A stretch of DNA of 64,000 bases. Source: a virus. Taxonomy: Duplodnaviria > Caudoviricetes. The notes under the pieces were generated by a model. It saw nothing but the letters and a program-made list of their open reading frames with translations, did no database searches and had not been told where the DNA came from. The stretch spans positions 1-64,000 of IMG/VR virus record IMGVR_UViG_2791355221_000001; one strand, 5' to 3'. A program made the translations under genes and the position numbers. Of the stretch, positions 51,070 through 57,892 are shown one piece after another; the stretch's first letter is position 1, and each line of letters begins with the position of its first letter.

Positions 51070-53325
51070 TCATTTGATTTTGGCAAGTTCTGATTTTCTC
51101 TGATCCTCACTTAATACCATCTCATAGCCTTTTGCCTTAGACCTATGCTTCAACAACCACCCTAAATCAACGAGAGACATCATCATTTCGCTTACTTTCT
51201 CTGAGCGCACACCAAGACACTTCTGCAACACAGTTACACGTGTTTCTCCACTTTCCAATATGGTTCGTTTCAACTTAGTCATATCTTCATCTTCAGGTGC
51301 CGCCTCGCTATCTATACTAAGCGTCTCTTTCTTGAAGTTTCCTTTCCAATATCCTGCCAAATGCTCGATGATTCGGTCTTGCTCATCGTCATCTCTGCCA
51401 ATCAATGCACCTTGGAATCTCACTAATCCTTGAATTCCTTCAAAACTCAGTAGTCCATCACCTCGGCCTAAGAGTTGCATCTTCGGAACTTCATCTAAAG
51501 CAACCTTATAACTCGTTCCATCAGCACAAGTGAAACAAACGCGAGATGGGATATTTCCTTTGATGAGAGAAGTGACTACAGTGGCGAGAGGCTTTTGTGT
51601 TGCAACAATGAGATAGATTCCACTAGCCCTCGATTTTTGTGCCAACAATATTATTTGTTTTTCTAAGGCTGGCATTGTCATTATCAAATCAGCTAATTCG
51701 TCAATGACAATAACGATATAGGGGAGGCGTTCCTTTTCATTTTTATTAAACTGCTGAATATTTTTATATCCTTTCTTAGCGAGGAGAGTATATCTATCCT
51801 CCATTTTTTCGACCATTGCTACAAGTGAAAGGAATGCTTCTTTATTATCAGTTACAACGTCCATCACATGAGGGTATTTTCTATAGCCTGCCAACTCAAC
51901 TTGCTTAGGATCGATAAGTAGCATTTGGAGGTGTTTTGGCGATCTCAGCAACATCATAATAACTAATAAGCAATTCAGGAACACACTCTTACCTGAACCC
52001 TGAGATCCAGCAATAAGCAAATTTCGAATCCGAGTCAAGTCATCATAAATAATCTCACCATCGGAGCCAATGCCAGCAATAAAAGGTATTTCACTGTTCT
52101 TAATGAATTTTTGAAATTCAGGATTCTCTAAACAATCTCTGATGAATACTTTTTCTCTTACATCTTGGGGAATGACAACCGAAACTGTTGATGGCTCTTT
52201 CCCTTGTTCTATATTAATGTGACTCAATGCGAGTTCGGTTTGTATATCTGGAATAGACTTTTGCAACTGTGATAATCTAAGTCCTTCAGGTAAATTGAAA
52301 TTTATTCTTCGAACAGTTGATCCATGTTGAATAGAGTTAATTTTTATTTGGGTGTCTTTTATCAAGTTTAATTTCTTAAATGCTTTATTGAATCTCTGTG
52401 CTACATTTTTATCATCTTCTCTTACAACTCTCTCACCTCTAGGAAATATTTCGTAAACATGAGAATTTTCATTTGTCTCTATTTCCTCTGGCGCAACCAT
52501 CAGTTGCTCAATTTTCTCTTCTTCATCAAACGAAGAGAAGAGGGGCAATAGTTCTGAAACACACATTATTAACTGTGTTGGGACAAATGGAGTTCTCCTC
52601 AAATTTATATCTCTAATAAACCTGCTTTTGTTCAACGGAATTCCCATAATCCAACTGTTCGAGTAATTCATTATTGAAAAACCTAACTTAACCTTTGCTG
52701 CTAATTGATTTCTCTTTTCTTTATTTCCACCATATATGGCAAATCTAATATATGTCTCATATCCTACCTCGGTGAACTTCTGTTCGGCTCCTTCGATCAT
52801 GGGATTCTTTCCAAAAAACTCTTCTTTATTCTGTAGGAATTCGAGTATACGATGTTGGATAGACCTAACTACTTTATTCTTAGTTGGTAACTCAATTCCA
52901 CTAATATAACTGTGGTATTGGAGCTTAGAATCGATTTGCCAGTCAACACCTTGAACCTTCTTCAATATTATTTGAATGATGATCTTTTCATCAGCTAAAG
53001 TTTTATCCGTATATTTGATAATCGAACTCATGATATTCTCTTCTAGTTGCATACGAAAAGGAAAACATATTGGCTTATAACTGCTCAACGAATAACATGA
53101 TAGTTCCTTTAGATCAGTTTGAATCATCAACTTCGGCTTTCTTTCTAGTTCCAAGTCCTCCATTTGTGAGAACAAGTATTTTTTTACCCTGTGCCTTGTA
53201 ATAAGCCATTCTAAACCAAGAGTCCCCTCCGATGAAGATAGAAGGGACTCAGCATATTCAAATGTGAGATCACCATAAATGAAAGTAGATGTGTCAACTG
53301 ACGCATTAAAGATGTTTAATTTCAT
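51070..53325 (-). CDS. FtsK/SpoIIIE-family DNA translocase with soluble N-terminal domain and gamma-like C-terminus
   Basis: LLIAGSQGSGKS, LIDPKQVEL, IVIVIDELADL, LAQKSRASGI.LIVATQKP, LLGRGDGL; C-terminal wHTH; no N-terminal TM segment. Confidence 0.9.
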   Translation of the reverse strand: MKLNIFNASVDTSTFIYGDLTFEYAESLLSSSEGTLGLEWLITRHRVKKYLFSQMEDLELERKPKLMIQTDLKELSCYSLSSYKPICFPFRMQLEENIMSSIIKYTDKTLADEKIIIQIILKKVQGVDWQIDSKLQYHSYISGIELPTKNKVVRSIQHRILEFLQNKEEFFGKNPMIEGAEQKFTEVGYETYIRFAIYGGNKEKRNQLAAKVKLGFSIMNYSNSWIMGIPLNKSRFIRDINLRRTPFVPTQLIMCVSELLPLFSSFDEEEKIEQLMVAPEEIETNENSHVYEIFPRGERVVREDDKNVAQRFNKAFKKLNLIKDTQIKINSIQHGSTVRRINFNLPEGLRLSQLQKSIPDIQTELALSHINIEQGKEPSTVSVVIPQDVREKVFIRDCLENPEFQKFIKNSEIPFIAGIGSDGEIIYDDLTRIRNLLIAGSQGSGKSVFLNCLLVIMMLLRSPKHLQMLLIDPKQVELAGYRKYPHVMDVVTDNKEAFLSLVAMVEKMEDRYTLLAKKGYKNIQQFNKNEKERLPYIVIVIDELADLIMTMPALEKQIILLAQKSRASGIYLIVATQKPLATVVTSLIKGNIPSRVCFTCADGTSYKVALDEVPKMQLLGRGDGLLSFEGIQGLVRFQGALIGRDDDEQDRIIEHLAGYWKGNFKKETLSIDSEAAPEDEDMTKLKRTILESGETRVTVLQKCLGVRSEKVSEMMMSLVDLGWLLKHRSKAKGYEMVLSEDQRKSELAKIK

Positions 53326-53425
53326 TTTTAAACACCCTTACACCAATTCGATACAGAATAATTATTACAACAGTTGTATTGGTCAATAGGGCAGTAGCGT
53401 TTAATATTAAAATAGCAGTAAGCAT
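53306..53425 (-). CDS. 39-aa hydrophobic peptide
   Basis: Read by hand (MLTAILILNATALLTNTTVVIIILYRIGVRVFK...); SD AGGAGG; overlaps the FtsK start. Confidence 0.55.
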   Translation of the reverse strand: MLTAILILNATALLTNTTVVIIILYRIGVRVFKNEIKHL

Positions 53426-53438
53426 ATGATACAACCTC

Positions 53439-56629: not shown

Positions 56630-57428
56630 ATGCTCTCTCTCCTAGTGCAAAGTTTCCTATTGCATTGGCATATTCGTAGTTATTATGGATGGTTGGATTG
56701 CTTTCAGGATAGATATCTCGAACATACTTGAACATATCAGGTGCCTTACCTCCAATAAGCAGCATTTTCTTACTTGTGCTGTCATTCCATCGCTTTTCCA
56801 TTTGATTTTTTAGTGAAAGCATTAATGAGGAACAATCATGATCAACCATTGATTCAAATCCAAACTCAAAGGTTTTAGAGCGTTTATCAATAAGTTTTCG
56901 CTTTCTTACTGATATGCCATGAATAGTAGAGCTGCCGAAATCCCATATGTTGCAATCATCAGGTAAGTTTGCATCAGAATAATAAGCACTAAGACCTTCA
57001 GGACAAACTCCGACATTTCGAATATGGAGTTTAAAAGGTTTTTCATTTACTTTAAATTCTCTATATCCTGAAAGTAGGTTCTTAAGGTTCTCTCGTTCCT
57101 TCTTAGTGTTGATTCCAAACGGATTCCCTACTACTAGGTTAAACACGTCACAGGGCAACCTCGAAAGTTCTACGAGTAGATTCAAATGTGTAACAAGATT
57201 TGATTTGCCCATATCCTCCGAATTAAGAAAGTTCTGCCCCTCACGATCTGCTAAATCTCCAGCAAAGTACATCTGATTGTTGTATTCAATGATTAGATTA
57301 TTATCATCCAATTGAATGTTATCTTTTATTTCTCTATAAGTGGCAATCTTACTTAAATGACCCTGTACGCCACCTTTCCATTTTATTTTTGTACGATACT
57401 TGCCAATATCAGCACCTACAGTTAGCAT
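56622..57428 (-). CDS. ParM/StbA-family actin-like ATPase
   Basis: GADIGKYRTK, VCPEGLSAY, WDFGSSTIH, LIGG, YANAIG. Confidence 0.85.
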   Translation of the reverse strand: MLTVGADIGKYRTKIKWKGGVQGHLSKIATYREIKDNIQLDDNNLIIEYNNQMYFAGDLADREGQNFLNSEDMGKSNLVTHLNLLVELSRLPCDVFNLVVGNPFGINTKKERENLKNLLSGYREFKVNEKPFKLHIRNVGVCPEGLSAYYSDANLPDDCNIWDFGSSTIHGISVRKRKLIDKRSKTFEFGFESMVDHDCSSLMLSLKNQMEKRWNDSTSKKMLLIGGKAPDMFKYVRDIYPESNPTIHNNYEYANAIGNFALGERAYG

Positions 57429-57667
57429 TTTTACTTACCTCCTATCTAGATAGTATCTATCTGTGATTTATACGATTATTGCTGCGATTTATATTAAGTG
57501 GATAATATCTTTGCTTCGATAAATTCACTATAAACTCGACATTTTGTCCCTAGCAATAGGGTCTACTTGTACTTTTTTCGGAAAGTTTGCAATGCTTGTT
57601 TCAAAAGTTAGTATAAAAAACAAATAGTTTGTCCATCCTAATTAAAAAAACAAAAGGATGGATGCAT

Positions 57668-57892
57668 ATGTTCGGATTAGGTAAAGATCGTTCGAGACTA
57701 GGGAAGTTCTTGGATAATAACGATATTACTCAGGAAGAATTAAAAGATAGTTCAGGACTATCGAGAGATGGGATCTCGCTGCTGTGCAAAGGAAAAACTA
57801 ATATTAATCCAACCGAGAATACAATGCGGAAAATCGTTGGGGCACTGAGACGTATGGGGCACGATGTTGATATGGAAGACTTTTGGGGATGA
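57668..57892 (+). CDS. XRE-family HTH regulator (MFGLGK.RS type)
   Basis: FLDNNDITQEEL...SGLSR..IS.LC...DFW; divergent from the ParM operon. Confidence 0.8.
   Translation: MFGLGKDRSRLGKFLDNNDITQEELKDSSGLSRDGISLLCKGKTNINPTENTMRKIVGALRRMGHDVDMEDFWG

Follow-up and report, generated by a model that had tools for sequence, protein, structure and literature searches.

We analyzed a 64,000-nucleotide stretch of tailed-phage DNA (IMG/VR record IMGVR_UViG_2791355221_000001, positions 1 to 64,000; hereafter the window) that belongs to a prophage of an endospore-forming bacterium, and in which a block of genes beginning at position 51,070 encodes an FtsK-type ATPase, a VirB6-like membrane protein, a 175-amino-acid (aa) pilin-like protein, several small proteins and an actin-like filament protein. 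This block is a variant, driven by an FtsK motor, of an operon family already described in 2012 for the lytic Bacillus phage 0305phi8-36. We infer, with a little less than even confidence, that it constitutes a phage-borne DNA translocation module which works without relaxase or VirB4 and which moves double-stranded DNA (dsDNA) across a septum, either to the forespore or to the sister cell.

A previous sequence-only reading of the window had proposed a minimal DNA-transfer and partition operon at this place, in which conjugation-derived membrane parts would give the motor a pore. All the parts that it named, including the divergent XRE-type gene, were found where it had placed them (Table 1), and the derivation of the membrane parts from conjugation systems was supported by the fold and family of the VirB6-like protein and by the coupling-protein fold of the motor's N-domain. 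Its statement that such a combination was undescribed did not hold, as the homologous operon of 0305phi8-36 and SPO1 was published in 2012 and the cluster of Bastille-like phages in 2013 and 2015.

The motor is an FtsK-type dsDNA translocase without its own anchor

The last gene of the block encodes a true FtsK-type dsDNA translocase, a soluble motor of the hexameric type that lacks a membrane anchor of its own. Its AlphaFold model (predicted local distance difference test, pLDDT, 83) comprises an alpha/beta N-domain (residues 10-265), a disordered linker, the FtsK alpha domain (300-390), a RecA-like domain (400-660) and a C-terminal winged helix (680-750) made of three helices and two strands. 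The best Foldseek match of this model was the FtsK motor bound to dsDNA (E 3.5e-31, template modelling (TM) score 0.83-0.87), followed by TcpA (E 7e-23) and then by type VII ATPases (E 5.8e-16). The Walker A and B residues were invariant in a 20-member alignment, in which G440, S444, G445, K446, S447, E543 and R566 did not vary. As had been claimed, no membrane helix was detected in the protein, either in the sequence scan or in the model; the FtsK_4TM family (PF13491), which was recorded on cellular matches, was present in none of 18 phage-type relatives.

The winged helix occupies the position of the gamma domain of cellular FtsK. Among the family of 20, Pfam TrmB was matched in 11 and MarR in eight, and FtsK_gamma (PF09397) was recorded for one of the 18 phage-type relatives. 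At the other end of the protein, residues 1-270 resemble, at TM scores of 0.74-0.77, the DUF8128 domains found at the N-termini of ATPases with TrwB_AAD_bind, TraG-D_C or T4SS-DNA_transf, a likeness of structure only that comes from one source, the Atlas structure search. By sequence, DUF8128 was absent from the window FtsK and from the 25 families listed for 20 relatives, and the Pfam copy used may predate the family. The N-domain is thus predicted to have the fold found on anchor-less coupling-protein ATPases, and the comparison with coupling-protein domains that the sequence-only reading had suggested came out positive.

A VirB6-like and a pilin-like protein form the predicted membrane platform

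The polytopic protein encoded upstream of the motor is VirB6-like, an assignment that we accept from the TrbL matches of its relatives and from the predicted structure, and that agrees with the TrbL/VirB6 likeness proposed before. Its longest called frame has 536 aa starting from a GTG, with residues 219-502 covered by phrog_3750, and its conserved core begins near the ATG at 54650. Of its 11 closest relatives (42-80% identical), five matched Pfam TrbL and three TrbL_4, one of the 11 being above the Pfam curated cut-off (best 2.2e-7, 31 bits versus a cut-off of 27). When 1.84 billion representative proteins were searched with a family profile of the protein, 135 clusters were retrieved, 90 with E <= 1e-30; when the 10 weakest or longest profile matches were scanned, TrbL or TrbL_4 was found in six, three of them above cut-off. 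The AlphaFold model, built from 71 sequences, reached a pLDDT of 85, and in the Foldseek comparison with PDB ranks 1-8 were all occupied by TrwI/VirB6 from the type IV secretion machinery of R388, with E-values of 1.4e-3 to 2.8e-2 and a target-based TM score of at most 0.51; matches after rank 8 were noise (E >= 0.13). TrwI also appeared by sequence alone, as a weak second match (E 0.81).

The 175-aa protein has a conserved long leader, a positively charged stretch, a signal-peptide-like hydrophobic stretch that ends in a conserved P-T-M-A/A-type (A-x-A type) site, and then two membrane helices. A long leader, an A-x-A-type site and two helices are the layout of VirB2/TrbC pilins, and the likeness of the 175-aa protein to VirB2 is one of layout only. 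A T4SS_pilin lead from the Atlas structure search was weak and sub-threshold (0.85).

The open frame of the VirB6-like gene overlaps the pilin-like gene in the -1 frame

In nine of nine loci (the window, two Paenibacillus loci, five Herelleviridae loci and 0305phi8-36), the VirB6-like frame was the -1 frame of the 175-aa gene. In the window it remained open for a further 531 nucleotides (nt) upstream of the core. In the eight loci other than 0305phi8-36, the -1 frame ran without a stop through 427-496 nt of the pilin-like gene; in this phage it was open from nt 110 of the 516-nt ORF204. The significance of the open frame was estimated by shuffling, in which the protein was kept and the codons were redrawn from local usage, with 5000 trials per locus in seven of the eight loci (locus L005 was left out). 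For the window and for the Paenibacillus locus L006, none of the 5000 shuffles kept the -1 frame open as far, and at each of the remaining five loci between 1 and 19 of 5000 did so; the shuffle medians were 28-103 nt, and the +1 frame had no such excess.

An internal start for the VirB6-like protein was considered and rejected, as no start with a good ribosome site was common to the loci; the ATG at 54650 has no ribosome site. The simplest reading is that the two genes are probably joined by a programmed -1 frameshift, giving a fusion of about 593 aa; the open frame itself is robust, and the mechanism is what we infer from it. In each of the seven loci compared at this site, a conserved (N/D/V/L)-F codon pair contains a T-run, and the last -1 stop precedes this run by 2-45 nt. 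The window, L006 and 0305phi8-36 have A AAT TTT here, the Paenibacillus locus L007 has T TTT TTC and Herelleviridae have xTT TTT. By our own reading of the sequences, GGAGG was found on the 3' side of the run at 17 nt in five of the seven loci and at 20 nt in locus L003, and the window has a weaker GAGGTGA at 18 nt. One representative protein (P0112) carries the leader, a serine/arginine-rich linker and the VirB6-like domain in a single frame, which is the form expected of a frameshift product, and which an indel or a sequencing error in its A-run could also yield. No paper was found that links frameshifting, VirB6 or type IV secretion with a phage FtsK cluster.

Motor and platform are conserved behind interchangeable filament genes

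In tblastn searches of phage records, FtsK was matched in 383 records (254 of them Bacillus phages) and the VirB6-like membrane protein in 162 (160 Bacillus phages), all matches being below 60% identity. Among the matches listed, nearly all were Bastille-type Herelleviridae, and the FtsK and membrane genes were neighbours in seven of the seven phage records common to both sets. The gene order in Shbh1, SIOphi, Bp8p-C and Bastille was Alp7A-like actin, a small gene, an M23 peptidase (in three of the four), a small membrane gene, a gene for about 175-195 aa, the membrane protein, a micro open reading frame (micro-ORF; annotated in two of the four) and FtsK. By blastp, the 175-aa protein, the VirB6-like protein and FtsK were each matched in all five Herelleviridae loci, and the actin and the small ORFs were not linked to these five loci. 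The same three proteins also had matches in both Paenibacillus prophage loci and in 0305phi8-36, so that the co-conservation on which the sequence-only reading depended was borne out across very distant phages.

The prophages of P. cremeus and P. xylaniclasticus share the whole neighbourhood with the window, namely XRE, RecD2, the block, YonO, PhoH and an exonuclease. In the Paenibacillus loci (L006:7052-8451 and L007:7277-8667) the actin slot is occupied by a gene for 94-96 aa followed by a gene for a TubZ-type tubulin (Pfam Tubulin 1.5e-13 and 1.9e-14; PDB TubZ 2.2e-17). The filament slot thus holds an AlfA-like actin in the window, an Alp7A-like actin in Herelleviridae and TubZ in Paenibacillus. 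That three unrelated or distant filament systems stand at the same position before the same membrane and motor genes is the best evidence obtained here that positioning and pumping belong together, and the tie between the two that had been proposed earlier is strengthened by this exchange of actin for tubulin.

In bacterial genomes the module was rare: the profile matched one of 400 other genomes of the host's order. One locus (G214) proved to lie on the same contig as L006. Scans of genome, viral and metagenome contigs returned only the two Paenibacillus loci, one repeat and one 3.9-kb contig. Most occurrences of the module are in Herelleviridae of virulent type, so that it does not characterize integrating phages; for this reason, and because SPbeta does not have the module, the earlier link to an excised phage circle was not supported.

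In the C30-1 phage (an UNVERIFIED record, L005:7608-10466), the VirB6-like protein and FtsK are read as one 952-aa ORF. We treated this fusion as unconfirmed, given that none of the 135 profile matches exceeded 849 aa; three of the five longest matches scanned corresponded to TrbL.

Relaxase and VirB4 are missing and the wall hydrolase is displaced

The host genome (9.18 Mb) is 99.8% complete in 73 contigs, and this is the scope of every whole-genome negative reported here. In agreement with the sequence-only reading, the block contains no relaxase, VirB4 or wall hydrolase, and the whole-genome searches returned no relaxase and no VirB4/AAA_10 above cut-off. The relaxase families covered were Relaxase, Mob_Pre, Rep_trans, MobA_MobL and Replic_Relax: PF03432, PF01076, PF02486 and PF13814 (Replic_Relax) had no matches in the whole genome, and the matches of PF03389, all located on other contigs, remained below threshold at 18.8 bits. 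The relaxase-like ORF200 of 0305phi8-36 had no tblastn match in the genome at E <= 0.01. Regarding VirB4, AAA_10 gave two sub-threshold matches in the 9.18 Mb, one of them being this FtsK; CagE_TrbE_VirB and a VirB4 model were not run genome-wide, and TIGR00929 (VirB4_CagE), run against FtsK alone, gave 15.8 bits with a cut-off of 643. A full conjugative element elsewhere in the genome was consequently rejected for the families searched.

An M23 peptidase of 187 aa is encoded in the same prophage, outside the window and about 30 kb from the block (contig C1, 119616-120179, plus strand). It is 36-41% identical to the M23 proteins that lie inside the modules of Herelleviridae. In another representative protein (P0013), an M23 domain (residues 34-133; PDB 2.6e-20) is fused to a VirB6-like domain (156-533), and on account of this fusion we consider that the wall peptidase belongs to the system.

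Comparison with known systems

Pathria 2012 (PMC3357382) describes a 'DNA translocation operon' in 0305phi8-36 (orf200-207), in which orf200 encodes a MobC-like relaxase, orf201 a VirD4-like ATPase that has no membrane helices, orf203 a homologue of VirB6 and orf207 an actin-like protein, with a partial operon in SPO1 (gp27.x). The block of the window has the same order of an actin-like gene, a small gene, a two-helix protein of about 171-175 aa, a VirB6-like protein, a micro-ORF of about 40 aa and an ATPase of about 750-800 aa without anchor. ORF204 is homologous to the 175-aa protein (hidden Markov model search, 1.8e-15), ORF203 to the VirB6-like protein (blastp 2.1e-32; profile 4.5e-60) and the N-domain of ORF201 to that of FtsK (blastp 7.2e-15; profile 1.8e-30, positions 72-296). 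Both have an actin-like gene, the direct similarity to orf207 being weak (E 4.4e-4), and both have the -1 frame arrangement, with the A AAT TTT heptamer at the equivalent place. The two differ in that the motor is of FtsK type here and ORF201 is of AAA_10/VirD4 type, the ATPase domains of which do not align; the shared N-domain together with the differing ATPase domains indicates that one docking domain has been joined to two motor types. They differ also in that no homologue of the orf200 relaxase was found in this genome, and in that the block lies in an integrated prophage and the operon of 0305phi8-36 in a lytic phage. The sections of PMC3357382 that were considered make no mention of a signal peptide in the pilin-like protein, a frame overlap or a hydrolase.

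The Bastille-like phages (Bastillevirinae) provide a second comparison. Asare 2015 (PMC4528723) and El-Arabi 2013 (PMC3601020) report their FtsK/SpoIIIE homologue in the vicinity of sporulation sigma factors and of a 'plasmid segregation protein', and treat it as sporulation-related; the passages considered make no mention of membrane partners. Their FtsK (32-34% identical), VirB6-like and 175-aa proteins are homologous to those of the window and have the same order behind an actin-like gene. In contrast to the prophage, these phages are of virulent type, their actin is Alp7A-like, and M23 lies inside the block in three of the four annotated loci. The combination of genes was therefore already in print. 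We did not find in print the exchange of motors on a shared N-domain, the exchange of actin for tubulin, the M23-VirB6 fusion or the selected -1 frame. New in the window are the FtsK motor, the AlfA-type actin, the displaced hydrolase and the location in an integrated giant prophage.

Streptomyces TraB, together with clt, carries out relaxase-free dsDNA transfer by means of an FtsK-like hexamer with a C-terminal winged helix; it has membrane helices of its own and needs no VirB6-like or pilin-like partner. The likeness to the block lies in the relaxase-free dsDNA motor, but the plasmid_TraB model scored far below its cut-off here. In the TcpA-TcpH pair of pCW3 (Clostridium perfringens) the coupling ATPase is FtsK-like, and TcpA was the second-best fold class of the motor. 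The partner of TcpA in the Gram-positive envelope is a VirB6-like membrane protein. The Tcp system also includes a VirB4 ATPase and a relaxase, neither of which was found here among the families searched. The SpoIIIE/FtsK of the host is alike in motor fold and family and differs in having the FtsK_4TM anchor and another N-domain; the gamma family was not detected in the window FtsK. As for the filament genes, AlfA/AlfB of pLS32 is nearest to that of the window, and TubZ of the TubZ/TubR systems of phage c-st and Bacillus plasmids to that of Paenibacillus. AlfA/AlfB and TubZ/TubR are stand-alone partition cassettes, whereas the filament genes described here head a membrane translocase block.

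Proposed function and alternative explanations

In the mechanism that we propose, the filament cassette would capture the replicated or excised phage genome and move it to the membrane or pole. The N-domain would dock the motor on the platform of VirB6-like and pilin-like proteins, in replacement of the four-helix anchor of cellular FtsK/SpoIIIE, and the winged helix would load the motor on phage DNA, so that dsDNA could be pumped across a membrane barrier. This barrier would most likely be the sporulation or division septum, and the phage genome would reach the forespore or the sister cell without a virion. A -1 frameshift in the pilin-like gene would attach the shared leader to the VirB6-like protein and could thereby set the proportion in which the two membrane components are made.

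For carriage in a spore, a phage genome must reach the small polar compartment, as known from work on phi29, and the forespore is favoured on this account. It is also favoured because all hosts seen are spore formers, and because the phages carry other sporulation genes, namely a small acid-soluble spore protein (SASP) gene in this prophage and those reported by El-Arabi 2013 (PMC3601020). A wider form of the proposal would hold that large phages of spore-forming Bacillota share a capsid-free route for dsDNA across a septum to the forespore or sister cell, in which the N-domain docks interchangeable motors (FtsK or VirD4), the filaments are interchangeable (actin or tubulin) and the conserved -1 frameshift sets the composition of the platform; taken as a whole, we consider this rather unlikely.

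Were DNA moved across a septum, the module would explain the spore entry or carrier state of large Bacillus and Paenibacillus phages, and it would represent a route of phage transmission that needs neither particle nor receptor. The block further offers a naturally occurring, minimal case in which to study how a VirB6-type platform serves a dsDNA motor without VirB4 or relaxase. Three testable handles are at hand, i.e., the docking N-domain, the actin/tubulin exchange and the conserved overlapping -1 frame, and the last of these may represent programmed recoding, so far unreported, in the gene of a membrane protein. With 160 Bacillus phage records and 135 profile clusters the module is widely distributed, and many such phages have been proposed as biocontrol agents, which gives the matter practical weight.

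Several results weigh against the proposed mechanism. According to PMC3357382, deletion of the operon left the growth of 0305phi8-36 in the laboratory without a phenotype, and for no other homologous operon has a deletion been published. Canonical SPbeta, which also lysogenizes a spore former, does not have the module (the B. subtilis control was positive for YonO and not for phrog_3750), and the restriction to spore formers is confounded by phage phylogeny. Concerning the platform, the window's own VirB6-like protein has no Pfam match and the Foldseek E-values of its model are modest, none being <= 0.001; the 175-aa protein has no Pfam, profile or PDB link to VirB2/TrbC pilins, so that the 'VirB2-like hairpin' of the sequence-only reading is a likeness of layout. 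Concerning the motor, the FtsK_gamma family was not detected in the window FtsK, for which Pfam gave only TrmB (E 0.011), and a sequence search with the C-terminal 77 aa found no FtsK gamma structure; the 'gamma-like domain' of the sequence-only reading is recognized by its winged-helix fold and its position. In the filament cassette, the actin ATPase of the proposed ParM-ParR pair was confirmed and the adaptor is recognized by position and size only, as the 77-aa ORF had no Pfam, PHROG or PDB match and a weak MazE-type match (E 0.03). The 12-bp repeat upstream of the actin gene is present only twice in the window; since two or more matches were obtained in 36 of 100 shuffles, it is not significant by itself. 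Lastly, no stimulatory RNA structure was found 3' of the heptamer (z +0.81), and a TTG located 14 nt before the stop codon of the 175-aa gene coincides in the alignment with the starts called for the closest relatives, which makes coupled re-initiation possible.

Virion-independent spread between cells, in the manner of TraB, overlaps with septal transport and differs from it in the barrier: an FtsK hexamer would pump dsDNA via the VirB6-like and pilin-like conduit through the whole envelope into an attached neighbour, the M23 peptidase opening the wall. In its favour, all the membrane parts derive from type IV secretion and an export signal is present in the pilin-like protein. Lytic phages have the wall hydrolase within the module, P0013 combines this hydrolase with the VirB6-like protein in one chain, and a relaxase is missing as in TraB systems. 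We nevertheless judge such spread to be unlikely, because the motor is not of the TraB family (NCBIfam plasmid_TraB NF041214, 53.6 bits versus a cut-off of 800), VirB4 and a VirB8-like part are missing, no clt-like array of 8-bp repeats was seen (no search aimed at it was made), and no report was found of transfer by any phage with the module.

A purely intracellular role, in which the membrane proteins tether motor and filament for replication, for concatemer resolution or segregation, or for a plasmid-like carrier state and no DNA crosses a membrane, seems to us improbable as well. It would account for the constant position of a partition cassette upstream, for the location of the block beside replication genes and for the association of the ParM-like proteins of Bp8p-C with plasmid-like unstable lysogeny that is stated, with a citation, in PMC11526630 and PMC7685451. 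A tether, however, needs no pilin-like protein with a signal peptide, no VirB6-type channel fold and no M23 wall peptidase.

It is very unlikely that the block is a gate for incoming DNA, which would either complete the uptake of a partly injected phage genome or keep out or expel the DNA of superinfecting phages. Its situation in an early or lysogeny-side region opposite XRE regulators and the combination of a membrane channel with a dsDNA motor would fit such a gate, but the filament cassette would be left without a role, and PADLOC returned no family match other than a partial one of the FtsK motor (SspH, mad8), the other seven proteins having none, on which basis a defence system was rejected. 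Protein secretion, with the FtsK-family ATPase acting like the type VII EssC/EccC and exporting a phage protein through the platform, is highly improbable, since EssC and EccC, although present among the NCBIfam and Foldseek matches, are far weaker matches than FtsK with dsDNA (E 5.8e-16 versus 3.5e-31), the protein has a single ATPase domain and a C-terminal winged helix, and no WXG100-type gene was seen in the ORF and PHROG results of the window.

Layout of the block and genomic setting

The features of the block and its surroundings are collected in Table 1.

Table 1. Coordinates, strand and supporting matches of the features in and around the translocation block (window positions).
Feature	Position	Strand	Evidence or remark
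YonO-type RNA polymerase	48032-50614		phrog_8308 1.4e-185; Pfam RdRP 4.4e-5
Terminator-like hairpin	51036-51050	-	directly after FtsK stop codon
FtsK-type ATPase, 751 aa	51070-53325	-	no membrane helix; Pfam FtsK_SpoIIIE PF01580 2.1e-37
Hydrophobic ORF, 42 aa	53306-53434	-	overlaps FtsK start; uncertain gene
VirB6-like open frame	53439-55181	-	conserved core 53439-54650 = 403 aa; phrog_3750 3.3e-60
Pilin-like protein, 175 aa	54692-55219	-	phrog_3528 8.6e-18
Candidate -1 frameshift site, heptamer A AAT TTT	55133-55139	-	codons 28-29 of 175-aa gene; 44 nt after last -1 stop
Single-pass membrane protein, 66 aa	55182-55382	-	helix at residues 17-35
ORF of 53 aa, opposite strand	55429-55590	+	AAGGAG 9 nt 5' of its ATG; likely real gene
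Four small ORFs (57, 71, 55, 51 aa)	55692-56380	-	
Putative filament adaptor (ParR/AlfB position), 77 aa	56396-56629	-	position and size only
AlfA/ParM-like actin ATPase, 268 aa	56622-57428	-	ALP_N 4.5e-14; phrog_691 'partition protein' 6.2e-30; best PDB match AlfA 6f95 9.7e-6
Two 12-bp direct repeats (TATAAATCRCAG), 21 bp apart	57461-57493	-	between promoter match and actin gene; candidate operator/centromere
Sigma-A-like promoter match	57556-57527	-	5' of actin gene
XRE-type helix-turn-helix regulator, 87 aa, divergent	57629-57892	+	Pfam HTH_3 5.3e-5
Second XRE regulator, facing block	57955-58185		Pfam HTH_3 6.9e-5

The run of small ORFs described in the sequence-only reading was present but not strictly co-oriented, as the 53-aa gene lies on the plus strand, and because of this gene the block probably consists of two units, one with the actin and small genes and the other with the membrane genes and FtsK. 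No similarity was detected between the 53-aa protein and a reverse ORF of 53 aa at the equivalent place in phage Bastille. Instead of the three hydrophobic small ORFs claimed, a Kyte-Doolittle scan gave clear membrane helices only in those of 66 and 42 aa. The 66-aa protein has a counterpart in L006 (40% identical, E 2e-7), and at the position of the 42-aa ORF a micro-ORF is annotated in Shbh1, Bastille and 0305phi8-36, with none in SIOphi and no room for one in L006. The 77-aa ORF overlaps the end of the actin gene. The four small ORFs between it and the 53-aa gene had no family matches and had weak counterparts among the L006 and L007 (Paenibacillus) ORFs (blastp E 2e-7 to 4e-5). The repeats were examined within 57350-58400, and the frequency of sigma-A-like and terminator-like sites in the window was not above the shuffled expectation.

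The window corresponds to C1:32220-96219 of the 9.18-Mb genome. It lies in a low-GC island that extends from about C1:30,000 to 199,000, with about 30-38% GC versus 45.6% for the genome, and since GC like that of the host flanks the island on both sides within the same contig, we conclude that it is an integrated prophage of roughly 170 kb. On the minus strand the window encodes the tape measure, tail proteins, portal and terminase, and on the plus strand the RecD2 helicase, a primase-like protein and a tyrosine recombinase; the translocation block adjoins the replication genes. That the host is an endospore former is indicated by 10 SASP matches in its genome, and an alpha/beta-type SASP gene lies inside the prophage, outside the window (C1:108710-108889, minus strand; PF00269 9.4e-24).

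Two further YonO-type polymerase genes were found on another contig (C56:144937-147465 and C56:192539-195178; phrog_8308 1.1e-91 and 3.7e-106), and the VirB6-like gene occurs only once in the whole genome, so that the genome may hold further SPbeta-like elements without the module. Elsewhere in the window, a GIY-YIG homing-endonuclease-like gene is located at 2653-3558 on the minus strand (phrog_7168 8.5e-23), with a weak integrase-like C-terminal match (phrog_95 4.8e-7). Upstream of the terminase genes, positions 37096-44040 of the minus strand encode a GtrB-like glycosyltransferase, a tail-spike-like protein of 873 aa, a fibre-like protein of 347 aa and a collagen/fibre-like protein of 691 aa.

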